Shown here: positions 4,586 to 32,000 of the stretch, one piece after another
Position numbering within the stretch: position 1 is the stretch's first letter
How the letters are laid out: the number at the start of each line of letters is the position of its first letter
Assembly (NCBI RefSeq): GCF_000018105.1
Contig: NC_009925.1
Coordinates: 4,980,001-5,012,000 of the forward strand
DNA: 32,000 bases
Source of the DNA: Acaryochloris marina MBIC11017
GTDB lineage: Bacteria; Cyanobacteriota; Cyanobacteriia; Thermosynechococcales; Thermosynechococcaceae
Direction of reading: 5' to 3'
Position numbers and translations under genes: made by a program
Notes under the pieces: model-generated
Database searches by the model: none
What the model was told of the DNA's origin: nothing
What the model saw: only the letters and a program-made list of their open reading frames with translations

Positions 4586-4592
4586 CGTTCAA

Positions 4593-5680: not shown

Positions 5681-5763
5681 TGTCATTGGAGATGTGCCTT
5701 CTCTTATCCTTTGCTGTTGAACGGGTATCCCCTTAACGATTTAAAAATTGCACTGAATCCATG

Positions 5764-7622: not shown

Positions 7623-7641
7623 TCTGGGCGTTATCGAAGGA

Positions 7642-8889: not shown

Positions 8890-9058
8890 GAATATATTCC
8901 TGCATCTAGGGGGAAACGCCCTTCAGATGAGTCCCTAAAAGAACTTTTAAGACACTGAAAGAGGCCAATTCAATCTTGCTGCAACAAGGGCAACTCTTTC
9001 ATCATACTGGGAACAGATCACCTATACACGGTTGGCCTAGGGGAACGGACTGAATATC

Positions 9059-9907: not shown

Positions 9908-9928
9908 TCTGATTTGTCGTGAATGGGG

Positions 9929-10672: not shown

Positions 10673-10786
10673 GCACAAATTCTCATCGTTTCTAAGGAAG
10701 GACAAAGCGTTTGCACCTATAAATTGCGTTGAATTTTTAGGTGTAAACACCTGAGAAATGAAAGGAATGCAATTAAAGATGAAACG

Positions 10787-10831
10787 ATTATGAAAATACT
10801 GTAGCATCAAAAAGTGAAAGCATTATGAAAA
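10787..10831. promoter_or_regulatory. Direct repeat of ATTATGAAAA in the divergent promoter region of the metal-uptake genes; candidate metalloregulator operator
   Basis: ATTATGAAAA occurs at 10787-10796 and again at 10822-10831. Both copies lie between the divergently transcribed ATPase/permease genes and the binding-protein gene. AT-rich ATNAT cores resemble Fur-family boxes, but there is no clear palindrome. Confidence 0.25.
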
Positions 10832-10846
10832 ATTGATGGAAACGCC

Positions 10847-11824
10847 ATGACAACTTCCTTCCTAAAGCGCCAATTTGATTCCTGGGCATGGGCGATCGGC
10901 GGATTATTTCTGGGGTTGAGTTTGGTCGGATGTACCGGAGGTCAAGACACTGAACCATCAGGGAAGCCCAAGGTTGTCGCGACCAACACGATTTTGCAAG
11001 ATTGGACGGCAGAAGTCGCCGGGGATGAAGTTGAACTGGTGGGTATCCTGCAGCCCGGGGCAGACCCCCACGTTTATGAACCCGTCCCGGCAGATAATTT
11101 AAGAATTGAACAAGCGGATCTGATTTTCTACAACGGCTACAACTTAGAACCAGGCTTGATTAAGCTAATTGAATCGACCCAGAAATCTAAAGTGTTTGCT
11201 GTGGGGGAAGTGGTGACGCCCCTGGATTTCGATTATGAGGGTAAGCGAGAGCCCGATCCTCATGTTTGGGGCGATGCCAAAAATGCCATCAAAATGGTGA
11301 ACGCTATTCGCGACCAGCTAATTGAGCTATCCCCGGAGGATAAAGAAGAATTTACTCAAAATGCAGCTGAATTTACGAAAGAACTGGCAGCGGTGGATCA
11401 ATGGATTGGCCAACAGATGCAAACTATTCCCAGCCAACAACGACAGTTAGTCACGACCCATGATGCCTTTCAATACTATGCCAAAGCCTATGGCCTCACG
11501 GTTGCAGGCACCCTGATTGGCATGAGTACGGAAGAGCAACCCAGCGCTCAAACCGTCAAACGGCTTTCGGATGATATTGAAAAAGCCAAGGTACCGGCTA
11601 TTTTTGCGGAAACTACCATTAACCCAGCTTTGATCAAAACCGTAGCGGCGGAAGCCAAGGTAAAGCTAGCGGAGCAAGAGCTGTACTCAGATTCCATTGG
11701 TGCCTCGGGAACTGAAGCCGATACTTATATCAAGATGCTTCAGGTGAATACTCGCACGATTGTGGAAGCGTTAGGGGGCAACTACACCGAATTTCAGGCA
11801 GCATTATCTGAGGAAAAGAAATAA
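10847..11824 (+). CDS. Metal ABC transporter substrate-binding lipoprotein (cluster A-I; ZnuA/MntC/TroA family)
   Basis: 325-aa ORF with the lipobox LSLVGC. Metal-ligand blocks are GADPHVYEP, DPHVWGD and TTHDAFQYY. The third ligand position is His as in ZnuA/TroA-type proteins, but the His-rich loop is absent, so metal specificity is not resolved. Confidence 0.9.
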   Translation: MTTSFLKRQFDSWAWAIGGLFLGLSLVGCTGGQDTEPSGKPKVVATNTILQDWTAEVAGDEVELVGILQPGADPHVYEPVPADNLRIEQADLIFYNGYNLEPGLIKLIESTQKSKVFAVGEVVTPLDFDYEGKREPDPHVWGDAKNAIKMVNAIRDQLIELSPEDKEEFTQNAAEFTKELAAVDQWIGQQMQTIPSQQRQLVTTHDAFQYYAKAYGLTVAGTLIGMSTEEQPSAQTVKRLSDDIEKAKVPAIFAETTINPALIKTVAAEAKVKLAEQELYSDSIGASGTEADTYIKMLQVNTRTIVEALGGNYTEFQAALSEEKK

Positions 11825-11856
11825 TGCCTCACCCAATTGATGCAGGCCAGCATACC

Positions 11857-12609
11857 CTACCAAGGCAACAGACTACCATCCCAGGAAAAGAACTGGCCAC
11901 TGTCTTCTTTTCCCAGCCCGTCCAGAACCGTCAACAGTTGAGTGACGGTTCGATCAACCGAGAATAGTTTTTCCGGTGGGACATTCCGCTGAAAGGGTTT
12001 AGAGAGTTTGGTATCCGTCGTGCCTGGGTGTAGCGTCACCACAATGGTTTGAGGACTGCGACGGCGATACTCAATCGAAGTAGTTCGCATCAGCATATTC
12101 AAAGCTGCTTTGGAGGCTCGATACCCATACCATCCCCCTAAATGGTTATCGCCAATGCTGCCGATCTTGGCCGAGATAGTCGCAAAGATACTGGGATGAT
12201 CATGCTTCAACAACGGCAATAGATGTTTAGCCCATAGAGCTGCCCCAATACTATTGACTTGGAAATATCGCGTTAACTGTTCAGCATTGAGCTGCCGCAA
12301 TCCTTTCTCCGGCTGTAGATCGCCTTCGTGGAGAATGCCCACGCAGTTAATCACCCAGTAGAGCAGAACACCCTCAGATTGAATCTGATTACAGCAATCT
12401 GCAATTTGCGTCTCTTGAGTAATATCTACGGCAATGCAGGACACCCGTTCTGGATATTGGGCCGCTAGAGTAAGTAATCCTACAGCTGAGTCTTGGGAAC
12501 GATAGGTGGCGTAAATAGTTTGAATATGGGGCCTCTGAAGCAGATGCTGCACAAACCCCAAGCCAATGCCTTGACTGGCCCCGATCACCAGGGCATTGGA
12601 CTCACTCAT
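11857..12609 (-). CDS. Short-chain dehydrogenase/reductase (SDR), CsgA/C-factor-like subgroup
   Basis: 250-aa ORF with the NAD(P)-binding motif VIGASQGIG and the catalytic YxxxK motif (YRASKAAL). Its ATG overlaps the stop of the upstream membrane-protein gene (ATGA). Confidence 0.85.
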   Translation of the reverse strand: MSESNALVIGASQGIGLGFVQHLLQRPHIQTIYATYRSQDSAVGLLTLAAQYPERVSCIAVDITQETQIADCCNQIQSEGVLLYWVINCVGILHEGDLQPEKGLRQLNAEQLTRYFQVNSIGAALWAKHLLPLLKHDHPSIFATISAKIGSIGDNHLGGWYGYRASKAALNMLMRTTSIEYRRRSPQTIVVTLHPGTTDTKLSKPFQRNVPPEKLFSVDRTVTQLLTVLDGLGKEDSGQFFSWDGSLLPW

Positions 12610-13340
12610 ACCAACGGTGGACTAACGATAGGAAGCTGGCTACTAACATCGGGGCAGGTTTGATTGGCAAAATCACAGCGATAGAGATGGGGCTTTTGCC
12701 AGCTTAACGGAATTTCCAAGAGATCGCGGGTGCCGGTGATTCCTTGCCCCAGAAAGAGAAGGGTGGCCACACAGTTGAGGAGAATATGGATCCGTCGCCA
12801 TACTTGGGTGCGATCGCGATAAATGTCTTGCACCATGGCCAAAGACAGAATCATCAGTACCGTGGCAATCATGCCATAGTAAAAATGAGATACAAACCAC
12901 TCATCATCCCGCCGGAATACCCCGTCTTGCAACCCCAGGACAATCACCCCCAGACTGGTTAATCCAGCGAAGGTTGCTCGCCAATACCAGGGCTTAGCCC
13001 GATAGAGCAGGACGAGAGAACCAATCGTCGCCAGGAACATGCAGACGATAAATACCACCTGAAAAGGGTTCGTGATCCACAGCTGTGTTTCCAAAATCTT
13101 GCGGCTAATGGGAGCGGCCAAGCCCAGCAGTGCCAAGCCCACCACAGATCCGGTTAGCCAACGCCCCATCTGCACATGTTCGGGGCCTACCTGAGGAGGA
13201 ATTTTACTTTTTCCCGGAGACGTCTGGAGCCGTCGGCGACGGGTCAAAATCGAACGGTTTAATACCATTCCAATCAGTGGGAAGACCACAACCACGGCAA
13301 AAACAGGGTGCAGTAATAGAATGACATCATTGAGGGTCAT
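12606..13340 (-). CDS. Polytopic integral membrane protein, possibly DUF4079-like
   Basis: Multiple hydrophobic helices with conserved-looking His residues (LLLHPVFAVV, SHFYYGM, RIHILLN). The ORF is open to 13448, but that extension would overlap the bcsA-like 3' end, so the ATG at 13340 (MTLNDVILL) is preferred. The family assignment is tentative. Confidence 0.6.
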   Translation of the reverse strand: MTLNDVILLLHPVFAVVVVFPLIGMVLNRSILTRRRRLQTSPGKSKIPPQVGPEHVQMGRWLTGSVVGLALLGLAAPISRKILETQLWITNPFQVVFIVCMFLATIGSLVLLYRAKPWYWRATFAGLTSLGVIVLGLQDGVFRRDDEWFVSHFYYGMIATVLMILSLAMVQDIYRDRTQVWRRIHILLNCVATLLFLGQGITGTRDLLEIPLSWQKPHLYRCDFANQTCPDVSSQLPIVSPPLV

Positions 13341-13401: not shown

Positions 13402-15720
13402 TTAGGTTTTGGCAACTTCCACCGGGTTGATCTTCCTTTGTCGATCAAACAGAATCCGGGGAGTGAAGAAGCTTTTGACGAGTAAGTAGAGGGATTGCAA
13501 CTCTCCAGGGGCCTGAGGGCTTTTCCACTGACCGGGACGACAGAACAGCATTTCGACTAACCTGCGGTATTGGGGCGTTGTTACCTCGGCAAATTTAAGC
13601 TGGACAATCGGGTAATCATCTTCCCGCTGCTGAATCTGAGTAATAACCGCCTGGAGACATAAGTTCTCTTCTTGAATCTCAACCTGGACGGATTCTCCAA
13701 AATAATGTCTGGGTAATCCAGCTTGGGTCAGGGCAATTTCTGCACCGCCTTCCGAAATCATGGTGGTGATTCCCCATAACTTCAGGTTTCCTAAGGTGAG
13801 TCGAACCGTGCGTCGTAAATCGAACCACTCGTAGAGATCGGGCTTAGGAGCATCCAGCAAAATTAGTAGGGCCACTCCTAACACAATCAGGTTGTAAGAA
13901 CTCCAGAGCCAGCCCAGTTCGATCCCTTTAATTTGTAGGGCCACTTCTGGTTCAACAGTGGTTGACCAGGCTCCCTTCACCATGCACATGCCGAGATTAC
14001 GCCAGAGGCTAACCGCTGTGAAGATAAACAGCACTACTAATGGAGAGGCCAATTTCCAGTTGAAGGTGTAGCGATCGCTAGAGACCCCTTTGGGAGTTAC
14101 CTTAAAGCCTTTGGAAAAGGGATTAAATAGGGTCTGTAAAACCGTGAGCGCTACCGGAAAGCATTGGGATACCGCATAGATATCGGAGATGAGGGCAGAG
14201 CGACTGCGCTGATTCAGCCAAGAGAAGGTGAAGAGCTGCACCAAATAGTAGGGCATAAAGAAATACAGCATTTCTTGAGTGGTTGCCCGCCAAGGAATTA
14301 CGCCAAAGAAGGCATAGGCCAGGGGCATGAGCAAAAACCCCACCCGAGACACACTGGTAAACCACTGCAGTAAGCCATCTAAATGGGCAAGCCGCTGAAT
14401 TAACTTAAGCCCTCTAATTCTGAGGGGATTGGCTTCAATAAAGAAGGCCTGCAAGGTGCCCCTAGCCCAGCGAAGTCGTTGAGTGATATGGGCCGACATA
14501 TTCTCTGCGGATAATCCCGCGCTCAGACTTTCCCCCAAGAAGATCACCCGCTTGCCTTTCGCGGAGAGACGAACCCCCGTAAAGTAATCTTCACTCAGGG
14601 TTCCTGTGGCAAAGCCGCCTGCCTCGGCCAAAGCGCTACGGCGAGCCACAAAAGAGCTGCCATAACACAGGGCCGTTTCCACCCCATCCCGTAGGGGCTG
14701 GTAATAGCGAGAGAAGATCTCAACTTCTTGGGGCAGAATATTTTCCAGGCCAATATTGCGGGCCACGGGATCGGGATTAAAAAAGCTTTGGTGGGTTTGC
14801 AGTAGAGCAATGCTGTCGTTCTGAAAGAAACCTACAGTGCGTCGGAGAAAGTTTTTGGTCGGTACAAAGTCTGCATCAAAGACCGTGAGCAATTCCCCGG
14901 ACGTGAAATTCAGGGCATGATTCAAATTGCCAGCTTTGGCATGGAGATTATCGGGACGGATAATATACTCACACCCTAGCTCGGTCGCTAAAGCTTTGAT
15001 TTCAGGCCGCCGTGTATCATCCAGCAGGTAAACGGTCTTGCGGGGATAATCCATCGCCTGACAGCCAATAATGGTGCGCTTCAAAATAAAGCTGGGCTCG
15101 TCATAGGTCGGAATCATCACATCGACCGTGGGCAGATAGTCTCCATCGAGGACGGCCATTTCATTGATGTCCGCTTCCCCCAGCCGATTGGTTGAACGAG
15201 ACACCAGAATCAGTTGAATAACATTGGTGACGATGGTAATGATCTCTAAGGTCAGCAGACCAATACTAAAAATACTGTTGAAGGTATCTGAGAGATTGAG
15301 GGTCCAGAACAACCGCCACACCACATACTGCACAATCAGCAGTAGCAGAGATGTTCCCACGATCAAACGAGACCAAGGTCGCGGCGAAGACGATACCTGC
15401 ATAACAATCAGGACAGCCACCAGCAAGAGAACCGATGGCACAGCCAAATAATTTCCTGCGGCGACGGGGACCGCTAGCCAGAGGGGGGGATTGGCAAACA
15501 GCAGTTCCACCTGCTTAAAAATGGCCGTGACTCGATCTTCTCGGATAAACCATAGGCCCACCCCCAGTCCAGTGGCTAGAAAAATTCCCACCATGGAGAA
15601 TAGGGTGAGCCGAATTCGTCGAATAAATAAATTGGGTGATAGTGCAGATTTCTGCAGACTTTTGGGCAGATCGGGGAGGTGTGGCTTCGTAGCGGTCATA
15701 TCAGCTTCCTTAACGGCCAT
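13402..15720 (-). CDS. bcsA: Cellulose synthase catalytic subunit-like glycosyltransferase (GT2) with a C-terminal PilZ domain
   Basis: 772-aa ORF. It carries HAKAGNLNHAL, VFDADFVP, TLSEDYFTG and QRLRWARG (QxxRW) within a multi-TM scaffold. The C-terminal LRRTVRL ... MISEGGAEI resembles the RxxxR ... (D/N)xSxxG PilZ c-di-GMP motifs. The symbol is given in the family sense only. Confidence 0.85.
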   Translation of the reverse strand: MAVKEADMTATKPHLPDLPKSLQKSALSPNLFIRRIRLTLFSMVGIFLATGLGVGLWFIREDRVTAIFKQVELLFANPPLWLAVPVAAGNYLAVPSVLLLVAVLIVMQVSSSPRPWSRLIVGTSLLLLIVQYVVWRLFWTLNLSDTFNSIFSIGLLTLEIITIVTNVIQLILVSRSTNRLGEADINEMAVLDGDYLPTVDVMIPTYDEPSFILKRTIIGCQAMDYPRKTVYLLDDTRRPEIKALATELGCEYIIRPDNLHAKAGNLNHALNFTSGELLTVFDADFVPTKNFLRRTVGFFQNDSIALLQTHQSFFNPDPVARNIGLENILPQEVEIFSRYYQPLRDGVETALCYGSSFVARRSALAEAGGFATGTLSEDYFTGVRLSAKGKRVIFLGESLSAGLSAENMSAHITQRLRWARGTLQAFFIEANPLRIRGLKLIQRLAHLDGLLQWFTSVSRVGFLLMPLAYAFFGVIPWRATTQEMLYFFMPYYLVQLFTFSWLNQRSRSALISDIYAVSQCFPVALTVLQTLFNPFSKGFKVTPKGVSSDRYTFNWKLASPLVVLFIFTAVSLWRNLGMCMVKGAWSTTVEPEVALQIKGIELGWLWSSYNLIVLGVALLILLDAPKPDLYEWFDLRRTVRLTLGNLKLWGITTMISEGGAEIALTQAGLPRHYFGESVQVEIQEENLCLQAVITQIQQREDDYPIVQLKFAEVTTPQYRRLVEMLFCRPGQWKSPQAPGELQSLYLLVKSFFTPRILFDRQRKINPVEVAKT

Positions 15721-21542: not shown

Positions 21543-21672
21543 TAGACCTTATCGGAAATAGCTGAAAGCCTTACTGGGAAAGCGTTTTATTTTTGGAGAA
21601 AAATCGACCTCAAAGACTTACGACATAGACGTTTGAAGTTATTCTCACCCATTTTATTTCCGATAAGGTCTA
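21543..21672. mobile_element. MITE-like element: perfect 18-bp terminal inverted repeats flanking a 94-bp core
   Basis: TAGACCTTATCGGAAATA (21543-21560) is the exact reverse complement of TATTTCCGATAAGGTCTA (21655-21672). The outermost TA on each side could be a TA target duplication, as in IS630/Tc1-type elements. No ORF lies inside. Confidence 0.45.
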
Positions 21673-22100: not shown

Positions 22101-22364
22101 ATGGATGACCGACCAGTAACTGAATTAACTGATGGCGAGAAGAAAGAGCTTACTGCCCTTCTTTCTAAGTTCTTCCAGGAAAAGTCGATTGACACGAAAT
22201 CGTTGATTGTTGATGTATCAACAAAAGTAGATCGTGATGAAGAACTATCCTCATCAACTAAAACAAAGCTCTTTTGCCGATGGGGGTGTTGGTCTTGCCA
22301 GGGGCCAGGCCCGTTCCCAGGAGACCCTTGTTTTCCATGGGGTAAATGTTGGGATTGTCGTTAA
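22101..22364 (+). CDS. Leader-plus-core small protein (87 aa) with an acidic, Cys-free N-terminal 55 aa and a Cys/Trp/Pro/Gly-rich C-terminal 32 aa; candidate secreted or modified peptide precursor
   Basis: AGGA lies 6 nt upstream of the ATG. The core is KLFCRWGCWSCQGPGPFPGDPCFPWGKCWDCR, with 6 Cys and 4 Trp. There is no hydrophobic signal peptide. A terminator hairpin follows the gene. Confidence 0.6.
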   Translation: MDDRPVTELTDGEKKELTALLSKFFQEKSIDTKSLIVDVSTKVDRDEELSSSTKTKLFCRWGCWSCQGPGPFPGDPCFPWGKCWDCR

Positions 22365-22440
22365 AAACGACTCTAAATCCAAAGAACAACTGAATTGTTG
22401 ACGATATATACTTAGGATTCCGGTAGAGTCAAATATCTTC

Positions 22441-22482
22441 AAGGCGTAGTGTACAGTGATGTTGACTACGCCTTGCTTTTGG
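22441..22482 (+). terminator. Rho-independent-type hairpin between the peptide gene and the first TPS-domain gene
   Basis: AAGGCGTAGT (22441-22450) pairs perfectly with ACTACGCCTT (22465-22474) across a 14-nt loop. GCTTTTGG follows. The hairpin ends about 17 nt before the ATG at 22499. Confidence 0.55.
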
Positions 22483-22498
22483 GGACTACAATTTTAAA

Positions 22499-25390
22499 AT
22501 GACTCAACATATTCTGAGGTCATATGTACAACTGGGTAGTGCAAGTCTATTCATTGGCTGGACTATCTTCAGCATTGATGTTAGGCACGCTATAGCTCAG
22601 GCTTTACCAGATGCTTCCCTGGGAGCAGAGCGTTCTATAGTTACCCCCAATGTCAATGTTAATAATCGCCCTGCTAGTCTTATTCAAGGGGGAGCTGTAC
22701 GCAATTCGACAACAGTTTTCCACAGCTTTGAGCGTTTTGATATCCCCAAAAATCAAGCCATCTTTTTTGATAATCCCTCAGCTATACGCACAATTATTAG
22801 CCGAGTAACAGGTAACAACCCTTCTCAGATTCTTGGGACATTAGGACTTTGGAACAACATTGCAGGGACAGTTGGTAATGCTGATTTATTCTTCATTAAC
22901 CCTCGTGGCATTGCATTTGGTCCTCAATCCAGCTTAGACCTGAATGGTTCGTTTTTAGCTTCAACAGCAACCTCCATCAATTTCGGGAAAGAGTATCAGT
23001 TTAGTACTATCAATCCAGCTCCTCCTCCGATTTTGACAGTAAATATCCCCACTGGCTTGCAGTTTTCGGGTTCTGAGGCAGCTATTCTAAGTCAGGCTAA
23101 CGTTAACCCTGTTAATCAAACGTTTGGATTGAATGTTCCGCCTGATCGAACCTTAGCGCTGGTTGGAGGGAACATCATAGTACAAGAGGGAAGGCTTTTA
23201 GCTCCTCAGGGGCGTATTGAATTGGGTAGTGTGAAAAATGGCGAAGTTGGCCTTCTGCCCCAATTCAATAGTTGGAAACTAGACTATTCCAACATCGAAA
23301 ACTTTCAAGATATATTGCTTGAACAGCGGTCTGTTGTTAGTGCGACCGGCGTAGGGGGAGGTGAGATTCGTTTGCAGGGCAGGAATGTTCTTATTAATAA
23401 CAATTCAAGGATTTTTGCGACAGTGAATTTTGGCTTTACCTTAGGAGGTACATTAGAAATAGATGCTTCTGAAATTTTTCAGATTAGTAATGGGAGCGGT
23501 GTTTTCACCTCTACTTTGGCAGATGGTGATGCGGGCAGTATTTTAGTCAAAGCCAATAAAGTGTTATTAAAAAATGATGCTGCTATTGTTACAAATTCTG
23601 CTTTTATAGATTTTGATTTTTTTCAAATACGGGCTAATGGAAATAGCGGCAATATTTATATTGATGCACCAGAATCAGTTGAAATTATCAATAATAGTCA
23701 AATCTCAACAACAACGAATACTCCTGGAGACGCTGGTCTAATCAGTATTAAGACAGGCAGGCTGATTGCCAGTGAGTCTTCATTATTCCCAGCAATAAAC
23801 TCTGTGGCAGATATTGGTAGCGAGGGCGAAGCAGGTGATATTAACCTGTTGGCAACTCGATTTATTCAAATTGATAATAGCTCTGTTTCTACTTTTACGG
23901 CTGGTCTAGGAGATGCTGGAGATTTAACAATCAATACACCAAAGCTTCTTTTGGCAAATGGAGGCAGACTTGAGGCTTCAACATTCGGCTCAGGGAAGGG
24001 GGGGGACATTGCTGCTTTCGTATCTGATCAGATTAATATTTCAGGAAATACTCCAAATGCAGACCAACCTAGTGGCATCTTTTCCATAGTTGAGGTGGGA
24101 GCAACTGGTTCAGGTGGTCAACTTCTCTTAAATACAGGCCAATTAAGCATTGAAAAAGGTGGCCAAGTTTCAACCTCTACTGCTGGTCCAGGAGTTGCTG
24201 GCAAGATCGATATTAGGGCATTACAAGGTGTTAGCTTAGCTGATCCTGGAAGTGGGGTGTTTGCCAACACGACTGCGACCGGACAAGGGGGAACAATTTC
24301 ATTTGATACCCCAAATTTCCTGATTGAGAAGGGGGCTGTCGTCAATGCCAGTACTTCTGGAAATGGTCGAGGAGGTAGCATTTTTGTCCAGGCTAATCGT
24401 TTCACGGCTCGTCAAGGCGGCCAGCTTCTATCTACAGCATCTGGTCAGGGGCCAGCAGGGGACATCACTTTACAAGTAAGGGACAACATCACCTTAACTG
24501 GGGCCAATAGTGGATTGTTTGCTAGCACTACACCAGATTCGACTGGGGCTGCGGGCAATATCTTTATCGATCCAATACAGGTGTTGATCGCCAATGGTGC
24601 AGCGGTGTCAGCGACTAGCTTAGGTATGGGTGAAGGGGGAGATATTCAGTTGCGCGCCCGTAATTTAACTCTAGACCAGGGACAGATTACGGCTGAAGCG
24701 GCAGTGGCCCCAGCAGGGGATATTCAGTTGAATATTGACAATTTCTTATTGTTACGAAATGGCAGTTTGATTTCGACGACTGCTGGAGGGGATGCTACGG
24801 GGGGCGATATCAATATTGATGCTCAACTCGTTGCTGCTTTTCCATTTGAGAATAGTGATATTACGGCGAATGCTCTTAGTGGTCCAGGGGGAAATATCAC
24901 TATTACGACTCAAGGTGTTTTCGGCCTAGAGGTCCGAAACACCCTTACGAATGCCAGTGATATTACGGCGTTTTCTCAAACTAACCCCCAACTCAACGGT
25001 ATTGTCGAAATCATCACCCCTGAAGTGGACCCTAGCGAGAATCTGTCTGAACAACCCGAAACGGTTGAAAAGCCGACGGAGATTGCTAGGGGGTGTAAAG
25101 CCCAAACGGCTAGTAGTAGTTTTGTGAGCAAGGGACGTGGTGGTTTGCCCCAAAATCCAGATGCTGCTTTGAGTGGTGAGGCTATCTGGCAGGATCTACG
25201 TGCCCAGGAAATCCAGCCTGCTCAGCAACCCATTAACCAAACATTGCCTCAATCTACTTCACAGACATTTCTTTCCTCGACATCCCAATGGGTAGAGGCT
25301 AAAGCTTGGCAAAGATTATCTAATGGAAAAGTAAAGCTTGTGGGCAATTCAATCAATCAAAATACTTTGCATCCTGTGCCCACTTGCTAG
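22499..25390 (+). CDS. Filamentous-haemagglutinin N-terminal (TPS) domain exoprotein with a right-handed beta-helix repeat body (TpsA-like), copy 1
   Basis: 963-aa ORF. The TPS domain carries SLIQGGAVRNSTTVFHSFERFDIP...IISRVTGNNPSQILG...ADLFFINPRGIAFG...LDLNGSFLAST. It is followed by about 20 Gly/Asn/Ser/Thr-rich coils of about 22 aa (GDI.L...N..L..G..I). The C-terminal module is shared with copy 2. Confidence 0.9.
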   Translation: MTQHILRSYVQLGSASLFIGWTIFSIDVRHAIAQALPDASLGAERSIVTPNVNVNNRPASLIQGGAVRNSTTVFHSFERFDIPKNQAIFFDNPSAIRTIISRVTGNNPSQILGTLGLWNNIAGTVGNADLFFINPRGIAFGPQSSLDLNGSFLASTATSINFGKEYQFSTINPAPPPILTVNIPTGLQFSGSEAAILSQANVNPVNQTFGLNVPPDRTLALVGGNIIVQEGRLLAPQGRIELGSVKNGEVGLLPQFNSWKLDYSNIENFQDILLEQRSVVSATGVGGGEIRLQGRNVLINNNSRIFATVNFGFTLGGTLEIDASEIFQISNGSGVFTSTLADGDAGSILVKANKVLLKNDAAIVTNSAFIDFDFFQIRANGNSGNIYIDAPESVEIINNSQISTTTNTPGDAGLISIKTGRLIASESSLFPAINSVADIGSEGEAGDINLLATRFIQIDNSSVSTFTAGLGDAGDLTINTPKLLLANGGRLEASTFGSGKGGDIAAFVSDQINISGNTPNADQPSGIFSIVEVGATGSGGQLLLNTGQLSIEKGGQVSTSTAGPGVAGKIDIRALQGVSLADPGSGVFANTTATGQGGTISFDTPNFLIEKGAVVNASTSGNGRGGSIFVQANRFTARQGGQLLSTASGQGPAGDITLQVRDNITLTGANSGLFASTTPDSTGAAGNIFIDPIQVLIANGAAVSATSLGMGEGGDIQLRARNLTLDQGQITAEAAVAPAGDIQLNIDNFLLLRNGSLISTTAGGDATGGDINIDAQLVAAFPFENSDITANALSGPGGNITITTQGVFGLEVRNTLTNASDITAFSQTNPQLNGIVEIITPEVDPSENLSEQPETVEKPTEIARGCKAQTASSSFVSKGRGGLPQNPDAALSGEAIWQDLRAQEIQPAQQPINQTLPQSTSQTFLSSTSQWVEAKAWQRLSNGKVKLVGNSINQNTLHPVPTC

Positions 25391-25605
25391 ATCATGTTCT
25401 CTTTTTAGTGCTCTGTAAGGGAAAATCTAAAGCCGCTGTGATCTGAATTACAAACTTATGTTAATATCCGCATAATTTTTTGATGCTCCTCTGAGAGCTA
25501 AATAGCTTTGGTACTACTGAAAATAATCATCTATAAAAACTTAATTAGAAACCTAAGTTCTAGAAAATGTAACTTAACCATTGAATTTATCTCTCAAATA
25601 AATTC

Positions 25606-25772
25606 AACCTGGATTATTCATGACATTTTCAAAAACTTCCAAAATTCTTTCCCCATAATGTTTTTAGCGATCTAAAGAGTGTGACACCTTGATCTTTTTT
25701 AAGAATTCCTGAACTTCTTACCCATTAAGGACTTGAGAAGTGTTCTGTTGTTCCTCGTGAATAATCCAGGTT
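25606..25772. repeat. 15-bp perfect inverted repeat pair flanking about 137 bp of AT-rich non-coding DNA
   Basis: AACCTGGATTATTCA (25606-25620) is the reverse complement of TGAATAATCCAGGTT (25758-25772). A separate small hairpin, TTGAATTTAT/ATAAATTCAA, lies just upstream. Confidence 0.35.
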
Positions 25773-26155
25773 AAGCTCTCTTTTTAGACTCTTAAAAAAG
25801 TACACTATACAATTCCAATAACAAAAAATATAGATATCACCAATGCTTTTCTTAACAACTTCATGAGCACTTCAGACTCTTTATACAGATCATAAAATTA
25901 AATTGTAACTTCTCTAAATATAGCGGTTTTCAGAATTATAGAAACACCAAGAACCTTCCTAACAAGACTTTAAGCTGATCATGTAGTTTCAATAGTTATG
26001 AAATTCGCTATAAGCAAGAATAAATATAGAATCTCACTTACATTTCAATTTACCGGGAAATTATAGCTTATATAATGGAGGTTAGCTAAATATTAAAACC
26101 TATACAACAAGAGATAATCCTTTGATTTTACAAAAAATTATGGTTATTTTATAGT

Positions 26156-27391
26156 ATGAATAGCTCAAAAAGTTGTTCAAGTTTTAGTTCCTCTTCTAGA
26201 CTAATAAAAGTTTTGAGAGTGCTTTCTGGAGTTAGTGTTTCTATTGAAGAAATAGATTCAATAAATAGGGGTATTATTGATATAGTTAGTGGCTTCGTTT
26301 GTTCTCAAAGCTTTGACAGACTTACTGGATTAAAAACATTATTAATTCGGTCTGATAAGGATGAGATATTTCTGCTCTCGAATAATGGTGAATCTATCCT
26401 CAATGACAACATTATTTTTACTCTTGGTAATTTAGGATTCTTCAACAAGCCAAAAAAGATTTATGTCAAGAATATTAATGATTTTTATGATATTTTTAGA
26501 GATGCTGCAAAGCATAATCGTTTTTTAGACTGCATCTACAATCGTCTAACAAGAGAGTTGAATTATGTAAGATTATCATCAACAGATATCGCGATAAGCT
26601 CAGAATCAAAAATATCAAACTCGGATTCTTTACATCAAAATACTTTATCTCACATACCACTACCTTTAAAAATCTATTTTATTGGTGACTTTACTAAGAA
26701 CCAAAAGGTTTGTTTTCAGCTTGCCGCTGAGCGTTGGGGGGAAATTATTCATAATAATTTACCAATAGTCAGATTGCATGGAGAGATTATCGAAGGTGTT
26801 TTGATTTACGCAGTAGCAGTTGCCCTTGATGGTGAGAGTAAAATACTTGCTCAGTCAAGTCCGCTTCATCTCCGGAAGGAAACTTTACTACCTGCAACTG
26901 GAATAATCGAGTTTGATAAAGATGATCTTTCTAGAATAGAGGATAGTGGAAATTTAGTTAGTCTTATATTTCATGAAATAGGGCATATTCTCGGCTTTGG
27001 AAGCCTCTGGGAGAAAAAGGGATTGGTGCAAGGCTTAGGGACAAGTAACCCCATCTATATTGGTAAAAATGCGATGCGGGAATATGCGAAATTAGTAGGG
27101 TATGATTTCCCTATTCCTATTCCTATTGAAAATTCAGGAGAAAAAGGATCACTTTATGGACACTGGCGAGAATCCATTCTTGGAAGTGAAATAATGACCA
27201 GCTATTTAGGTAAAGAGTACAACCCAATTAGTAATATTACCCTAGCAGCTATGGAAGATATTGGTTACTCAGTCAACTATAGTGCCGGAGATTCAGTTCT
27301 ATTAGCTAGTACTGACAATTACAATAAAGATGGCAATAGGAAGGATAAAAGATGTTGTAGGTTCTTCAAAAGAGATTTTATTTTTGTATAA
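26156..27391 (+). CDS. Leishmanolysin-like (peptidase M8 family) zinc metalloprotease with an uncharacterised N-terminal domain of about 140 aa
   Basis: 411-aa ORF. HEIGHILGFG (nt 26972-26986 encode HEIGH) is followed by GSLYGHWRESILGSEIMTSYL...SNITLAAMEDIGYSVNY. This parallels the GP63 pattern HExxHxxGF ... GSH ... DELM ... LT.A...D.G.Y. No signal peptide is evident. Confidence 0.8.
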   Translation: MNSSKSCSSFSSSSRLIKVLRVLSGVSVSIEEIDSINRGIIDIVSGFVCSQSFDRLTGLKTLLIRSDKDEIFLLSNNGESILNDNIIFTLGNLGFFNKPKKIYVKNINDFYDIFRDAAKHNRFLDCIYNRLTRELNYVRLSSTDIAISSESKISNSDSLHQNTLSHIPLPLKIYFIGDFTKNQKVCFQLAAERWGEIIHNNLPIVRLHGEIIEGVLIYAVAVALDGESKILAQSSPLHLRKETLLPATGIIEFDKDDLSRIEDSGNLVSLIFHEIGHILGFGSLWEKKGLVQGLGTSNPIYIGKNAMREYAKLVGYDFPIPIPIENSGEKGSLYGHWRESILGSEIMTSYLGKEYNPISNITLAAMEDIGYSVNYSAGDSVLLASTDNYNKDGNRKDKRCCRFFKRDFIFV

Positions 27392-27423
27392 CAGAAAAAA
27401 AGAAATTCTAGTAAGGAGACATT

Positions 27424-28065
27424 ATGAGTGGTCCTCAAGATACTTCACTTACATCACATGGTTCCGGTGATGGTGGTACTTCAAAAGATTTACTTGATCG
27501 AGTAGTTTCTACTTCTATCTTACTGAAGTTTCTCGAGATTTTTGAAGGTGCAGAACTTAAGTTGTCGCAAATTATAGATATTTCCAATGGGGTCATTGAT
27601 TTTGTTACTGGGCATGTTGTGACTCAAAACTATGCTACCAAGACAGATAAGGCAAGCGGCTCTAAAACTGTTGTTTCCCGACAAGTTCAGATCCAGACAG
27701 CACATGAAGGAAACTTTACTTTAACAACCAATGAATCTGTAAAGTTAAGTGATTCTGCCATCAAGAGCTTAAGAGATACAAATAACACCTACTTATTCAA
27801 TAAAACAGATGATATTTATGTTAACGATAAAAGTCTTGAGTTTGCTCAAGATTTGCTACAAGAGGCATCAAGATATGGCCAACAAGTCACTTGCGTTTAT
27901 GATCAATCCAATGGAGATATTCTTTTAGTTCGAATAATTTCAAATCCAACATCTATTTCAAATGACAATAGATCATTCCCTTATATTCTCTCAGCCAGTG
28001 GCCCCGGAGTTCCTTCCCCAACACCCCAACCAACCCCTCATCCAACACCTCATCCGCGCCGATAA
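27424..28065 (+). CDS. Hypothetical protein (213 aa): homolog of the N-terminal domain of the adjacent M8 protease, plus a Pro-rich tail
   Basis: A strong AAGGAG lies 5 nt upstream of the ATG. LLKFLEIFEGAELKLSQIIDISNGVIDFVTGHVVTQNY aligns with LIKVLRVLSGVSVSIEEIDSINRGIIDIVSGFVCSQSF, and DDIYVNDK...CVYDQSNGDILLVRIIS aligns with KKIYVKNI...CIYNRLTRELNYVRLSS. The tail is GPGVPSPTPQPTPHPTPHPRR. Confidence 0.7.
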   Translation: MSGPQDTSLTSHGSGDGGTSKDLLDRVVSTSILLKFLEIFEGAELKLSQIIDISNGVIDFVTGHVVTQNYATKTDKASGSKTVVSRQVQIQTAHEGNFTLTTNESVKLSDSAIKSLRDTNNTYLFNKTDDIYVNDKSLEFAQDLLQEASRYGQQVTCVYDQSNGDILLVRIISNPTSISNDNRSFPYILSASGPGVPSPTPQPTPHPTPHPRR

Positions 28066-28318
28066 GAAGACATAATTTAACTAGAGCTTGCTGAAAGATT
28101 AAAAAGTGCTAACTAGCTTGTAAGGAAAATATTTTTACAAAGCCAATTAACGATTTTTTCGGCGTTGTAATTGATTTTAACTTACATAAAGTTACTTAGC
28201 ATAACTTAAAAAATGCGCGATCATACAAGTTTTTTAGCTCTTGATTTACTTCTTCAACAAGCTCTAATTAGCTCTGGGTAATGAGTAACATTTTTTTGTA
28301 TTTAAGCGATTTATTATC

Positions 28319-31300
28319 TTGACAGATATGAGACTTATATTGAGAAAGGTTAGTGAGAATTTGGAAGCTCTGTTTTCTCTTCGAAATGTAGTTATTGCTT
28401 CAATAGCTACCAGCACTTTTTCATTTGGCCTTTTACATGACATTGGTCTAGGGGAAGCTCAATCTATTTCTATAGATGGTTCTACTCCTACAAATTTAAC
28501 TAATTGTATTGATAATTGTACAATTAGTGGTGGTTCTTTGAGAGGTAACAACCTTTTTCACAGTTTTTCTGACTTCGGCGTTAACTCAGGCTCAGTAGCA
28601 ACCTTTATTGATCCTGGTGTAGTTAATATATTTAGTAGAATTACTGGAGCAAATAAATCTAACATTGATGGCTTAATTAGAGTTTCCGGTGGGAATGGAA
28701 ACCTATATATATTAAACCCAAATGGATTTGTTTTTGGGAAAAATGCGAGCCTAGATCTTAGTGGTTCGTTTATTGCTTCTTCTGCCAATTCTGTCCAGTT
28801 TGGCAATCAAGGCTTTCTAAATATTGCTACAAATCAGATATCAAATTTAACTATAAATCCATCAGCTTTAATTTATGACCAAGCTGGGAAGGCCATAAAT
28901 GTAAATGGAGCACAGCTGACTGTAAATGACAATCAGAATTTACTATTGTTGGGTGGAGAGGTCAATATTAGTAATGGGGCAAGTTTGGGAGCTTTTGGTG
29001 GCCGGATAGAGATAGGAGGGTTAGATAAGCCAGGAGCTATTCGATTGAATCCCAATAGAGGATTTAGTTTGCAATATGTCAATGGTACAAGTCTTTCAAA
29101 TATTTCAATTTCTGATGCACTTCTTGATGTTGCCGCTGGCAACTCAATAGGTGGAGGATCTTTGAGGATTAGTGCAAACAACATCAATATAGAAAATAGC
29201 AATTTTTTTGCTGGCCTGCTTTTTTTGGGAGAATCTGAAACACGATCTGGAGATATTGAGTTTTCTGCAACAAATGACATAAAAATTATTAATAGTTCCA
29301 TTGAGAATCGTTTATTTGAAAACAATCAAGGATTCTCCGGAGATATTATTATAAATGCTAATAATCTGCTTCTAGACTCTAGCAGCGTAAAAGCTGATCT
29401 TGATTCTGGTGCCCAGGGCAGTAGTGGTGAAATACGAATAAAAACCAATTCTCTTAATTTATCTAATCAATCATTAGTCTCGACCAATATCTTTGGAATA
29501 GGAAATTCAGAAGGTATTAGTATATTTTCTAATGGTGGCATTTTCATAGAATCAAGTTCTATCCTCAGCAACCTTGAAAACAATTCGCAGGGAGTTGGTG
29601 GCAAAATATCTATTCAATCTAAGGAGATATCTTTATCAAATCAGTCATTAATATCTACAAATCTTTTTGGAGAGGGTGCTGTTGGAAATATTGGTATTGT
29701 TGTTGATAGAGCCTCTCTAAACTCAAGTAGCATAGTAAGTGATGTTGCTCAGAATGGGAAAGGTAACGGTGGCGAAATTTTTATTACAGTTCATGATTTA
29801 TCTCTAGTTAACAATTCCTTTATTGGTTCCAGTACTTTTGGCGAGGGAAATACAGGAAAGATTTCTATCCTAGCTGAAGATAAAGTTAATCTTGAAACCA
29901 GTTTCATTCTTTCAAATATTTCTGCAGGTGGGAAAGGTAATAGTCGTACGATATCAGTCGATACTTCGAAGTTAATACTTTCTAACGGAGCACAAATAGG
30001 CTCTAATGTCAGCGCTTCATCTAACTTATTTCCAGGTGGGAATGGAAAAGGTGGGAATATAGAAATATTCGCATCAGAAATTGTTCATATATTTGGCGTT
30101 TCTAAGCTAGTAGGCCCATTTGAAGGATTCTCTAGTGGACTTTTCACAACTACGGATGAAGGAGCGATTGGTCCCGCTGGTAAAATCACTGTTACGACCG
30201 ACATCTTTCGCATAACTGATGGTGCAAGTGTTAGTGCCCAAACATTCAACGCAAGCACTGGTGGTGATATAACCATAAACGCCAGGATTTTTGAAGCACT
30301 CAGGGGCGGTCAACTTGTTACCACCACAAGCAGTATTGGTGATGCAGGGAATATTAGGCTGAATGTTTCTGAGTCAATTTTACTTTCTGGCGATGATCCC
30401 ACATTTTTTGTTCGTAAAGCAAAATTCCCTGATATAGTCCAAAATGAAGGATCGGCTAGCGGACTATTTGCTACCAGCCGTCCCAATTCAACGGGAAAAG
30501 CTGGGAGTATCATAATTGATCCTCAATCATTCTTTATTAGCAATGGGGCACAAATTGCTGTAAATAGCCAAGGCAATAGCCCTGCAGGTAATGTAAACCT
30601 GCAAGCAGGAAACTTAACACTTGACAAGGGAAAAATACTGGCTACCTCAACTAGTGGACAAGGTGGAGATATAAACCTTGATATTGATAATTTCCTCTTT
30701 TTAACCAATGGCAGTCAAATTTCTGCAACTGCTGGCAATCAAAATACTAGTGGTGATGGTGGCAACGTCACCATCAATACGGAACTTCTAGTGGCTCTCA
30801 ATAATAGTGATATCACTGCAAACGCCTTCACAGGAAAGGGAGGTAATATTCAAATTACTACCCGTGGTTTGTTTCAATCCCCTGATAGTAATATTACTGC
30901 TAGCTCGGAAAGTGGTGTAAACGGTCAAGTTATTATCAATAACCCTGAAGTTGACCCTAGTGAAAGTTTGTCAGAACTACCCGAATCTGTAGAACCTCCT
31001 CAAGATATTGCCAAGGGGTGTCGCCCAGGTCAGACTCTTGGGGACAGTAACTTCGTTCATGTTGGGCGTGGTGGTCTTCCCCCAGGTCCCCACGAAGCCC
31101 AAACTCCATCCACCGTATGGAAAGACCTTCGCGCTAACAATCTCCAACCCTCTTACACAACCACTGTAGATACTTCGCCTACGCCTTCAGCCCCTGAAAT
31201 CTCTAAAGTGGGTCCTGATATCGTAGAAGCAAAAGGCTGGAGCAAAGATTCCCAGGGTCGCATTTACCTAACCGCCAACGTTCCCCAACCTGTTAACAGC

Positions 31301-31324
31301 CCCCAACCCATTGCAACTTGCTAG
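28319..31324 (+). CDS. Filamentous-haemagglutinin N-terminal (TPS) domain exoprotein with a beta-helix repeat body (TpsA-like), copy 2
   Basis: 1001-aa ORF; the start is TTG at 28319 or ATG at 28328. The TPS domain carries GGSLRGNNLFHSFSDFGV...IFSRITGANKSNIDG...NLYILNPNGFVFG...LDLSGSFIASSA. It has about 20 beta-helix coils. The C-terminal module PEVDPSESLSELPE...AKGC...GRGGLPPGP...WKDLRA...VEAKGW...ATC is homologous to copy 1. Confidence 0.9.
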   Translation: MTDMRLILRKVSENLEALFSLRNVVIASIATSTFSFGLLHDIGLGEAQSISIDGSTPTNLTNCIDNCTISGGSLRGNNLFHSFSDFGVNSGSVATFIDPGVVNIFSRITGANKSNIDGLIRVSGGNGNLYILNPNGFVFGKNASLDLSGSFIASSANSVQFGNQGFLNIATNQISNLTINPSALIYDQAGKAINVNGAQLTVNDNQNLLLLGGEVNISNGASLGAFGGRIEIGGLDKPGAIRLNPNRGFSLQYVNGTSLSNISISDALLDVAAGNSIGGGSLRISANNINIENSNFFAGLLFLGESETRSGDIEFSATNDIKIINSSIENRLFENNQGFSGDIIINANNLLLDSSSVKADLDSGAQGSSGEIRIKTNSLNLSNQSLVSTNIFGIGNSEGISIFSNGGIFIESSSILSNLENNSQGVGGKISIQSKEISLSNQSLISTNLFGEGAVGNIGIVVDRASLNSSSIVSDVAQNGKGNGGEIFITVHDLSLVNNSFIGSSTFGEGNTGKISILAEDKVNLETSFILSNISAGGKGNSRTISVDTSKLILSNGAQIGSNVSASSNLFPGGNGKGGNIEIFASEIVHIFGVSKLVGPFEGFSSGLFTTTDEGAIGPAGKITVTTDIFRITDGASVSAQTFNASTGGDITINARIFEALRGGQLVTTTSSIGDAGNIRLNVSESILLSGDDPTFFVRKAKFPDIVQNEGSASGLFATSRPNSTGKAGSIIIDPQSFFISNGAQIAVNSQGNSPAGNVNLQAGNLTLDKGKILATSTSGQGGDINLDIDNFLFLTNGSQISATAGNQNTSGDGGNVTINTELLVALNNSDITANAFTGKGGNIQITTRGLFQSPDSNITASSESGVNGQVIINNPEVDPSESLSELPESVEPPQDIAKGCRPGQTLGDSNFVHVGRGGLPPGPHEAQTPSTVWKDLRANNLQPSYTTTVDTSPTPSAPEISKVGPDIVEAKGWSKDSQGRIYLTANVPQPVNSPQPIATC

Positions 31325-31452
31325 ACACCCCAGATTGACCGAAAATAAATGTCTAAATCGAGAAACTGGGCATTTGTCATTCGTTTGTGAACATGGGCAA
31401 AAGAATCTGGAAAAGCATCACACCATCAACAACCGTGAGGAAGGGAACATTA

Positions 31453-32000
31453 ATGCTTCAAAGAAAGGCTCGAAGACTACTGCCTCTTACTCGTAAAAGA
31501 TTACGCTGGGTGGGAGTGGCCCTTTGCAGTACCTGCCTAGTCCTTGGTCTCAGCCTTGGGCAACGTCCCGCCCACTCAACCTCAACTCTCCCCACCGCGA
31601 ACCAACTAACCATCAGCACTCCCACAACCCCTCACCCACGTCTGGCTAACAACCCAACCCAACTAGTGGAACAAGGGAAAGCCTTTTACCAAGGGGGACA
31701 GTACGCCGCAGCCGCAGAAGCCTGGTCACAAGCTGCCCAAGCTTATAAAGGTCAGCCCCTAAATCAAGCCATCGTCCTCAATCAACTTAGCCTTGCTCAA
31801 CAAGAACTGGGGCAATGGTTAAAGGCCCAAGATAGCCTAAGTAAAAGCTTAGATATTGTTGGCGACCCTCCAGCCCCAGAATATTTATCTATTTATGCCC
31901 AAGCCTTAAATGCTCAAGGCAGTTTGAACCTATCCCAGGGTGATCCCAAAAAGGCTATGAATACTTGGGGGAAAACAGCCAAAATCTATGCTCAACTGGG
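31453..32000 (+). CDS. TPR-repeat protein with an N-terminal signal or anchor. Partial: it runs off the window end. The N-terminus is of the type seen on cyanobacterial CHAT-domain proteins.
   Basis: The ATG at 31453 is preceded by GAGGAAGGG. The translation is MLQRKARRLLPLTRKRLRWVGVALCSTCLVLGLSLG..., then TPR-like VEQGKAFYQGGQYAAAAEAWSQAAQAYKGQPLNQAIVLNQLSLAQQELGQWLKAQDSL. The frame is open to 32000. The CHAT domain itself is not in the window, so that part is inferred from typical gene neighbourhoods. Confidence 0.7.
   Translation, partial: MLQRKARRLLPLTRKRLRWVGVALCSTCLVLGLSLGQRPAHSTSTLPTANQLTISTPTTPHPRLANNPTQLVEQGKAFYQGGQYAAAAEAWSQAAQAYKGQPLNQAIVLNQLSLAQQELGQWLKAQDSLSKSLDIVGDPPAPEYLSIYAQALNAQGSLNLSQGDPKKAMNTWGKTAKIYAQL

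Follow-up and report, generated by a model that had tools for sequence, protein, structure and literature searches.

Two TpsA exoproteins, a shared tail and a TPR-CHAT protease

We analyzed a 32,000-nt stretch of the Acaryochloris marina MBIC11017 chromosome (NC_009925.1, positions 4,980,001 to 5,012,000; hereafter, the window), focusing on a locus at its 3' end that encodes two TpsA-like exoproteins of two-partner secretion (TPS, type Vb), TpsA1 and TpsA2, together with an 87-residue Cys-rich peptide, a zinc metalloprotease of family M8, a small paralogue of its N-terminal domain (N-domain) and a TPR-CHAT protease. The list of open reading frames (ORFs) places these six genes, all co-oriented on the plus strand, within positions 22101-32000 (Table 1). 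A preliminary description of this DNA had proposed the same six genes; all are present. Pfam and NCBIfam profiles matched four of the products, whereas the 87-residue and 213-residue proteins had no match to any family.

TpsA1 and TpsA2 are 35% identical (E = 3e-122), the last ~280 residues being the best conserved, and both carry NPxG-type motifs (NPRG at residue 134 of TpsA1 and NPNG at residue 130 of TpsA2). Their N-terminal segments are moderately hydrophobic, with scores of 1.58 and 1.75, respectively, obtained without a dedicated signal-peptide predictor. TpsA1 contains just two cysteines, C866 and C963, and the conserved tail of TpsA2 carries C898 and C998; in each protein, the second of these is the last residue. 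Compared with its counterparts in other strains in steps of 100 residues, TpsA2 is 27-49% identical over the first 600 residues and 51-80% over the last 400. The tail of TpsA1 comprises the elements DPS..L.E.P, GC, GRGGLP.NP, a VEAKAW..G.V.LV hairpin and the terminal Cys. Using the last 280 residues of TpsA1 as a query, we retrieved 356 proteins from many cyanobacterial orders and, from the species genomes of GTDB, at least 592 stretches that were confirmed. The elements conserved across this family are ENSDITANAF and SDITASS, DPS.GL.ELP, a Cys followed by the invariant GRGG(L/I)P, (V/I)VEA.GW..G.I.LV and a final Cys. A Cys is located at most 25 residues before GRGG in 114 of 115 tails. Behind GRGG, Cys is present in every tail, once in 114 of them and twice in the remaining one, mostly 0-8 residues from the end. 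Judging from these matches, the TpsA tail is a cyanobacteria-wide family. In an AlphaFold model, the last 180 residues of TpsA1 are predicted to be largely disordered (predicted local distance difference test, pLDDT, 63), apart from a beta-hairpin at the VEA.GW element that is modelled with confidence. The C-terminus is thus conserved within the genome, between strains and across cyanobacteria, and there is no VENN motif in the TpsA proteins, in agreement with the earlier suggestion that this is not the toxin/immunity layout of CdiA.

To survey the neighbors of this family, ORFs were called in 84 related loci and clustered, and the cluster representatives were named with Pfam. Pfam and NCBIfam scans detected no TpsB of the ShlB/POTRA type in window positions 1-22100, in the block itself or in the 10 kb downstream, which bears out the preliminary description on this point. 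However, the absence is not the special feature it had been taken for: a TpsB gene is adjacent, usually directly upstream of TpsA, in just 15 of the 84 related loci, so that the lack of an adjacent TpsB is typical for this TpsA family. A 578-residue protein encoded downstream was considered as a hidden TpsB and rejected, since it matched neither ShlB nor POTRA nor Omp85 with the threshold relaxed to E = 1.

It is the gene for the CHAT protease, rather than that for the transporter, that accompanies the TpsA tail most constantly. The window itself covers only a signal-like segment and the first TPR repeats of this gene. Extension of the contig past position 32000 (L001; loci and contigs are denoted by L numbers), as the preliminary description had advised, revealed the CHAT domain that it had anticipated: the full product has 875 residues, with PF12770 matched at residues 605-873 (E = 1.4e-57), and retains the His (HLATHG) and Cys (LSACETA) dyad. 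Its N-terminus is hydrophobic (score 2.10), and an N-terminal hydrophobic segment is present in 23 of 23 full-length CHAT proteins adjoining a TpsA; the protease would probably be located outside the cytoplasm, in the periplasm. TPR-CHAT genes were found in 46 of the 84 related loci, usually downstream of TpsA, and in 26 loci they come immediately after it in the same orientation, at distances between -122 and 289 bp. In Nostoc sp. GT001 and Limnospira fusiformis, 19-31 bp separate the tail-bearing gene from the CHAT gene behind it. DUF928 genes (24 of 84 loci) are usually located after CHAT, and genes for response regulators or histidine kinases (30 of 84 loci) usually after DUF928, yielding the recurring order [TpsB]-TpsA-TPR-CHAT-DUF928-sensor.

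Further pairings occur on Acaryochloris plasmids. TpsA-TpsB-CHAT operons are present on those of A. marina S15 and of strain 'Moss Beach', each strain having three TpsB genes, and the tails of the TpsA proteins encoded there have the same C...G.GG.P...GW...C layout. On plasmid pREC3 of MBIC10699 (L099, positions 6052-11322), a single protein of 1756 residues combines the TPS domain, the shaft, a C..GRGGLP tail, TPR repeats and the CHAT domain, and its gene adjoins a DUF928 gene. This fusion supports a direct functional link between the TpsA tail and CHAT. No other TpsA-CHAT fusion was found in the 84 loci, nor a second plasmid copy.

Several observations concern the surroundings of TPR-CHAT genes in other genomes. 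DUF928 genes and genes for two-component or CHASE2-GGDEF-EAL sensors regularly follow TPR-CHAT elsewhere (L010, L015, L040, L049, L075 and others) and are absent from the Acaryochloris chromosomal locus. The pREC3 fusion gene is followed by two genes for toxin-activating lysine-acyltransferases and by one for a large calcium-binding (RTX-like) protein. In Nostoc sp. GT001 (L009, positions 631-7130), the region directly upstream of the TpsA-TPR-CHAT module encodes a pair of small paralogues that have ISGG double-glycine leaders, then another small ORF, and after these an ABC exporter with a C39 peptidase and a protein resembling HlyD. These leader peptides were considered as relatives of the 87-residue peptide and rejected, the sequences being unrelated.

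Table 1. Features of the locus and its divergent neighbor, in window coordinates
Feature	Position	Strand	Evidence or remark
87-residue peptide	22101-22364	+	ORF; no Pfam, NCBIfam or PADLOC match
TpsA1, 963 residues	22499-25390	+	PF05860, E = 7.5e-51; TIGR01901, E = 7.7e-20
TpsA1 TPS domain	residues 33-292, ~22595-23374	+	
TpsA1 conserved C-terminal tail, ~114 residues	25046-25387	+	Alignments
TpsA1 GRGG motif	residues 879-882, ~25133-25144	+	
Strain-variable cassette (intergenic region, M8 gene, N-domain gene, first ~738 codons of TpsA2)	25481-30541	+	
N-domain::M8 zinc metalloprotease, 411 residues	26156-27391	+	Peptidase_M8, E = 9.3e-10
Stand-alone N-domain protein, 213 residues	27424-28065	+	Paralogue of the M8 N-domain
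TpsA2, 998 residues	28328-31324	+	PF05860, E = 9.6e-38; TIGR01901, E = 3.9e-18
TPR-CHAT gene, 5' part, 182 codons	31453-32000	+	Full gene would end at ~34080 in window numbering
MshEN-type protein, 650 residues	19450-21402	-	Possible associated regulator (tentative); divergent from the block

The strain-variable cassette and its genes

The chromosomal site of the block is shared by six strains or assemblies of Acaryochloris. The same gene order, followed by the genes for an S41 peptidase, the 578-residue protein and HSP33, was found in strain CCMEE 5410 (L005), an A. marina NIES-2412-type assembly (L008) and assemblies L097 and L098, and the contig of metagenome bin L012 keeps to this order up to its end just past the CHAT gene. 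Thus, the block is no chance juxtaposition, and the possibility raised earlier that its genes are never syntenic in related genomes does not apply. Across the six alleles, median identity declines from 97% for the flanking S41 peptidase to 80% for TPR-CHAT, 70-73% for the TpsA tails, 70% for the 87-residue peptide, 53% for the catalytic part of the M8 protein, 45% and 43% for the N-terminal parts of TpsA1 and TpsA2, respectively, 33% for the M8 N-domain and 30% for the stand-alone N-domain protein.

The preliminary description treated the six genes as one block. The block is real and syntenic, but it is not homogeneous, consisting of a TpsA/TPR-CHAT backbone and a separately inherited cassette. 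Nucleotide homology to the other strains stops at ~25480, just past the stop codon of TpsA1, and resumes at ~30540 inside TpsA2, near residue 738. The G+C content of the cassette is 0.351 versus 0.465 for the rest of the window, and the equivalent intervals in other strains are likewise GC-poor. The M8 protein, the N-domain protein and the N-terminal part of TpsA2 co-vary between strains (r = 0.88-0.91), and the N-terminal part of TpsA1 and CHAT track each other (r = 0.91) while being decoupled from the cassette genes. For instance, L008 and L012 share the cassette (86%, 77% and 78% identity for the M8 protein, N-domain protein and N-terminal part of TpsA2, respectively) on the most divergent backbones (45% for the N-terminal part of TpsA1 and 78% for CHAT), whereas L008 and L098 differ in the cassette (52%, 26% and 43%) on backbones that are nearly the same (96% and 93%). 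Because of this co-variation, decoupled from the backbone, the cassette appears to be exchanged as a unit, with the conserved 3' end of TpsA1 and the tail region of TpsA2 as the flanks. A search for repeats in the block yielded nothing that would explain cassette mobility. The earlier suggestion of an insertion is therefore correct insofar as a low-GC cassette is inserted here; what is inserted is a recurrent, co-varying functional unit rather than a chance juxtaposition. A metagenome-assembled genome (MAG) of Thermosynechococcaceae contains the same order of genes, for an M8 protein of 385 residues, an N-domain protein of 215 residues and a TpsA of 599 residues with the same tail ending in Cys, in a different genomic context; there is no CHAT gene on its 7.8-kb contig. 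The cassette most likely confers strain-specific surface, effector or recognition specificity.

The M8 protein matched Peptidase_M8 with 38.2 bits (cut-off, 21) over profile positions 170-335 of 529. Its motifs, HEIGH at residues 273-277, GHW at 335 and the Met-turn EIMT at 345, are retained in homologues, and it ends in a basic C-terminal tail containing CC. Some homologues have an additional N-terminal hydrophobic segment, and several end in CC or in CxC-rich basic tails. Full-length homologues were found only in Acaryochloris-type genomes, and a comparison with PDB sequences gave no match at E = 0.01. The product is 100% identical to a protein of A. marina MBIC10699, the NCBI call of the gene being 21 codons shorter. 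A gap of 765 bp precedes the M8 gene, and 32 bp separate it from the N-domain gene, the product of which is identical to AM1_4967 of strain MBIC11017.

The 213-residue protein aligns at 28% identity (E = 4e-16) with the M8 protein over residues 12-152 of the latter, and the two are thus linked by the novel N-domain, as the preliminary description had read them. An N-domain profile matched 44 clusters among 1.84 billion representative proteins, most of them stand-alone proteins of 160-215 residues. Members consist of a conserved domain of ~145 residues followed by a short hypervariable tail, which in many is rich in Cys, Trp, Pro and Gly, for example, with C-x-P-x-G-x-C loops and 6-10 Cys; the 213-residue protein of the window has a Pro/Thr/His-rich tail devoid of Cys. 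AlphaFold yielded a confident alpha/beta model of this protein (pLDDT 81.7; predicted TM-score 0.76). A Foldseek search of the N-domain against PDB returned no match at E = 0.001 or better (best E = 6.7e-3), and there was only weak resemblance to oligonucleotide/oligosaccharide-binding (OB) folds and to AB5 B subunits, with query-normalised TM-scores of 0.36 or less. A Pfam scan of ten members produced no consistent match. The N-domain is thus a rare, unannotated family, predicted with confidence to be folded and without known relatives. A short motif, N-C-(I/T)-P-G-x-(N/D)-C-P, recurs at the C-termini of small proteins of the N-domain type and of small ORFs beside them (L008, positions 11419-12259; L012, positions 12767-13243; L013, positions 7601-8347); a similar loop, C-(F/S)-P-W-G-x-C, is present in the 87-residue peptide.

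The Cys-rich peptide and the surroundings of the block

The 87-residue peptide consists of a conserved N-terminal part of 58 residues and a core with six Cys, CRWGCWSCQGPGPFPGDPCFPWGKCWDCR. The preliminary description called it Cys-knot-like, and the six-Cys pattern, C-x3-C-x2-C...C-x5-C-x2-C, is indeed there; it is a pattern of cysteines, from which a knot fold does not follow. Copies 70-76% identical to that of the window occupy the same slot in L005, L008 and L098, with the six-Cys pattern invariant. In L012, the slot holds a divergent ORF of 79 residues with a four-Cys C-terminus, and in L097, a protein of 125 residues with a sub-threshold match to an NHLP leader (E = 6e-4; 19.6 bits versus a cut-off of 50.9). 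The 125-residue protein of L097 is adjoined by an unknown protein of 341 residues and a divergent radical SAM protein of 633 residues (positions 3309-6966). The search for homologues of the 87-residue peptide found none outside Acaryochloris, and kinship with the N-domain was rejected at an hhalign probability of 0.05. A gene for a small protein precedes each TpsA gene, and the end of this protein is variable and often rich in Cys.

Upstream of the block, the divergent 650-residue protein matched NF053729 in two stretches (E = 1.3e-17), corresponding to MshEN-type motifs that bind cyclic di-GMP (c-di-GMP); one transmembrane helix (residues 427-445) is followed by a C-terminal domain of ~200 residues, and there is a partial AAA_35-like stretch. 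Its gene adjoins the block in four of the six alleles, and the protein is 85% identical between strains, versus 94-99% for the housekeeping neighbors. Elsewhere in cyanobacteria, genes of the AAA_35 family take up this divergent position in five or six loci, with full AAA_35 genes beside the TpsA modules of L020, L045, L058, L066 and L071. The window also encodes a GGDEF-EAL protein (positions 2828-4585, minus strand) and a cellulose-synthase-like family 2 glycosyltransferase with a PilZ domain (positions 13402-15720, minus strand), giving it an overall theme of c-di-GMP and surface polymers.

In the intergenic region upstream of the 87-residue peptide gene, a 130-bp element (positions 21543-21672) is bounded by perfect 18-nt inverted repeats, TAGACCTTATCGGAAATA and TATTTCCGATAAGGTCTA. 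It looks like a small insertion of the miniature inverted-repeat transposable element type, because the segment is absent at the matching position of CCMEE 5410. Downstream of TPR-CHAT, the extended contig continues with the genes for the S41 peptidase, the 578-residue protein, HSP33 and a VCPO-like protein. The start of TpsA2 in public assemblies is the ATG at 28328, not the TTG at 28319. An Rfam search of the window gave no match, scans for promoters and terminators gave signals at or below chance, so that no operon is defined by them, and PADLOC matched no defence system, reporting only generic TPR models and a weak BovA match.

A proposed mechanism, its alternatives and known systems

We favor, with a probability of about one half, the interpretation that this is a type Vb surface-exoprotein locus in which the tail of the exoproteins is docked and processed by a periplasmic CHAT protease, and which in addition carries a polymorphic effector or recognition cassette. 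TpsA1 and TpsA2 would be exported by Sec and threaded across the outer membrane by a TpsB encoded elsewhere. The shared tail of ~110 residues, closed by a disulfide, would remain periplasmic and act as a stopper. Precedents are HMW1 and HxuA, whose C-terminal disulfide loop holds them at the cell surface, anchored in or under their TpsB (PMC5422565), and the TpsA adhesin CdrA, which is cut off the cell at its periplasmic C-terminus by the periplasmic cysteine protease LapG (PMC4694147). In the periplasm, the tail may serve as the docking site for the TPR array of TPR-CHAT; it would suit binding by TPR repeats because it is predicted to be mostly disordered with one hairpin. The caspase-like His/Cys dyad would then cut the tail and thereby release or mature the exoprotein. 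A plausible position is after the invariant Arg, between GR and GG, a candidate site for a clan CD peptidase because this Arg is flanked by glycines within a disordered segment. The cassette, in turn, would provide a strain-specific TpsA2 shaft along with two N-domain products, the tagged metalloprotease and the small protein, and all three would form a polymorphic module for effector function, recognition or competition, and the shared N-domain may pair the protease with the small protein for substrate recruitment, propeptide-like inhibition or common targeting. A bolder version of this proposal, in which TPR-CHAT with its signal peptide is a new third component of type Vb secretion in cyanobacteria, a dedicated caspase-fold peptidase for processing or sorting that reads the disordered two-Cys GRGGLP tails of hundreds of TpsA exoproteins, and, at the same time, the cassette is a new polymorphic effector system, with a metalloprotease and small Cys-rich peptides tagged by the N-domain and presented or delivered by the TpsA fibre for competition or recognition between strains, is conceivable but doubtful.

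Several points weigh against the proposed mechanism. The partnership of CHAT and tail is read from gene adjacency and a single fusion, and in the scan of species genomes, 24 of 79 loci have no CHAT gene within 10 kb. The exact TpsA2 product was found in 11 public contigs, and in 10 of these, L002-L004 among them, the CHAT gene is cut short at codon 451 (~32803 in window numbering) by a stop that results from a single C-to-T change between the TPR and CHAT parts; the gene is intact in L001. CHAT therefore seems to be dispensable, at least in culture. A cut between GR and GG alone would not part the fragments, because the site is inside the putative disulfide loop. The plasmids of MBIC10699 in PLSDB yielded no TpsB match either, the search having covered the window, the 10 kb downstream and the plasmids, not the chromosome. 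The M8 protein, the N-domain protein and the 87-residue peptide of this strain have no signal peptide that would take them to the surface. Finally, the correlation of the cassette genes is drawn from only 15 pairs and is dominated by the one pair that shares a cassette. The stop codon also offers an opportunity: public assemblies with the intact or the nonsense allele amount to a natural knock-out of CHAT, making the idea directly testable.

Among the alternatives, a role of the cassette in contact-dependent competition is unlikely, although several features recall it. In this scenario, the M8 protease would be a toxin displayed by the TpsA2 fibre, and the stand-alone N-domain protein would be its inhibitor or immunity protein, acting like a propeptide in trans. 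Extreme divergence at a fixed locus and inheritance as a unit are typical of such loci, the N-domain is common to the protease and the small protein encoded 32 bp downstream, and polymorphic toxin systems employ peptidase toxin domains as well as TPS delivery (PMC3482391). However, the M8 protein carries neither a TPS domain nor, in this strain, a signal peptide, and the TpsA C-terminus is constant rather than polymorphic. Furthermore, the structured-looking tails of the small N-domain proteins, with their 6-10 Cys, would be left unexplained by an immunity role, and no match was obtained with PADLOC or with any known toxin or immunity family.

Two other alternatives are improbable, to about the same degree. 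According to the first, the 87-residue peptide and the N-domain proteins would be precursors of ribosomally synthesized peptides, each composed of a leader and a variable core, with the M8 protein as the leader peptidase acting through its N-domain and the TpsA proteins as neighbors or carriers. The block encodes no modification enzyme or peptide exporter, neither the 87-residue peptide nor the N-domain proteins match a leader family of such peptides (NHLP, Nif11), and a folded 'leader' of 145 residues (pLDDT 81.7) would be unusually large; the Cys-free tail of the N-domain protein of the window also fits poorly. On the other side are the leader-plus-variable-core layout of the N-domain family and of the 87-residue peptide, the small protein just upstream of each TpsA, and the L097 slot, where a radical SAM gene is located two genes further upstream, on the opposite strand, from the NHLP-leader-like protein, the match of which, however, is far under the cut-off. 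The second alternative invokes c-di-GMP-controlled retention and release of an adhesin: the 650-residue protein would sense c-di-GMP on the cytoplasmic side, and its periplasmic domain would gate the cutting of the TpsA tails by CHAT. Its architecture, with two MshEN-type motifs, one transmembrane helix and a C-terminal domain, its position beside the block in four of six alleles, the CHASE2-GGDEF-EAL and two-component genes flanking related modules elsewhere in cyanobacteria, the PilZ and GGDEF-EAL proteins of the window and the precedent of LapG cutting CdrA (PMC4694147) are all consistent with such a switch. However, L097 and L012 lack the gene at this position, its link to TpsA loci in other genomes is weak, with matches to 4 ORFs only, and the 650-residue protein is not homologous to LapD, nor is CHAT to LapG. 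A switch of this kind is compatible with docking and processing of the tail by CHAT, and not exclusive of it. The idea that an unrelated insertion merely brought together genes without a functional link is hardly credible, since the sharp GC dip over 25.5-30.5 kb, the 765-bp gap before the M8 gene and the lack of promoter or terminator signals above chance that would define an operon are set against a gene order kept in six alleles, a TpsA-then-CHAT pair that recurs across cyanobacterial orders, an M8/N-domain/TpsA triad that recurs in another family and cassette genes that co-vary.

Knowledge of type Vb secretion comes almost wholly from pathogens among the proteobacteria. That the most constant genomic partner of a cyanobacterial TpsA family is a caspase-like protease suggests an unstudied step of maturation, anchoring or release. 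The swappable cassette provides a handle on cell-surface differences between close strains of a widespread marine cyanobacterium, with relevance to attachment to hosts such as ascidians or algae, to pressure from phages or grazers and to strain competition, and it adds a protein family predicted with confidence to be folded and without known relatives. We found no paper on the combination of parts at this locus, as the preliminary description had supposed, and none on the pairing of TpsA and CHAT (CHAT with TPS or hemagglutinin), although most subscription journals lay outside reach; for DUF928, the literature yielded a single unrelated paper, and for the locus tags AM1_4964-69, none.

The TpsA proteins resemble those of classical TPS systems (FhaB/FhaC, ShlA/ShlB and HMW1A/HMW1B) in having an N-terminal TPS domain with an NPxG-type motif and a long Gly/Asn-rich repetitive body, and related cyanobacterial loci do have an adjacent ShlB/POTRA TpsB. 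In contrast to the classical systems, there is no TpsB within 20-30 kb here, and the conserved partner is the putatively periplasmic TPR-CHAT protease. PorU of type IX secretion and glycosylphosphatidylinositol (GPI) transamidase are clan CD peptidases that sort secreted proteins by a C-terminal signal. As in these systems, a secreted family sharing a conserved C-terminus would be combined with a dedicated extracytoplasmic peptidase of the caspase fold; the secretion route differs, and the tail here is predicted to be disordered, unlike an Ig-like C-terminal domain. A TPR plus CHAT architecture is also found in Craspase TPR-CHAT (Csx29) of type III-E CRISPR, but the protein described here has a predicted signal peptide; neither the window nor its extension contains a cas gene or CRISPR array, and no CRISPR-associated PADLOC model matched. 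With leishmanolysin (GP63, family M8), the M8 protein shares HExxH, the distant third His (GHW) and the Met-turn, but the match is limited to the catalytic core, which is fused to the novel 145-residue N-domain, and in this strain the protein has no signal peptide. Other bacterial M8 homologues have PPC, Big or FN3 domains in place of the N-domain.

The closest parallels in genetic behavior and in proposed function come from contact-dependent inhibition (CDI) and from surface adhesins. Like CdiBAI and polymorphic toxin systems, the locus combines TpsA-family proteins with extreme strain polymorphism and apparent cassette exchange via conserved flanks, and the N-domain family, with its constant N-terminal domain and variable C-terminal ends, is built like polymorphic toxins (PMC3482391). 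Unlike in CDI, the polarity is reversed, the TpsA C-terminus being constant and the TPS domain and shaft variable; there is no VENN motif, no toxin fused to TpsA and no recognisable immunity family, and the downstream gene is TPR-CHAT. The anchor of HMW1 comprises 20 residues, whereas the tail described here is a family-specific loop of ~95 residues with GRGGLP and a putative disulfide. With CdrA/CdrB-LapG/LapD of Pseudomonas aeruginosa, the locus would share a TpsA and a periplasmic cysteine protease, and the gene for a putative c-di-GMP receptor adjoins the block. Pfam and NCBIfam scans of the block and its neighbors found neither LapG (DUF920) nor a LapD GGDEF-EAL receptor; LapG is transglutaminase-like and unrelated to CHAT, the 650-residue MshEN protein is unrelated to LapD, and the likeness is thus functional only. 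By analogy, the locus would act most like HMW1-type anchoring or CdrA/LapG release, but with a protease of an unrelated family.

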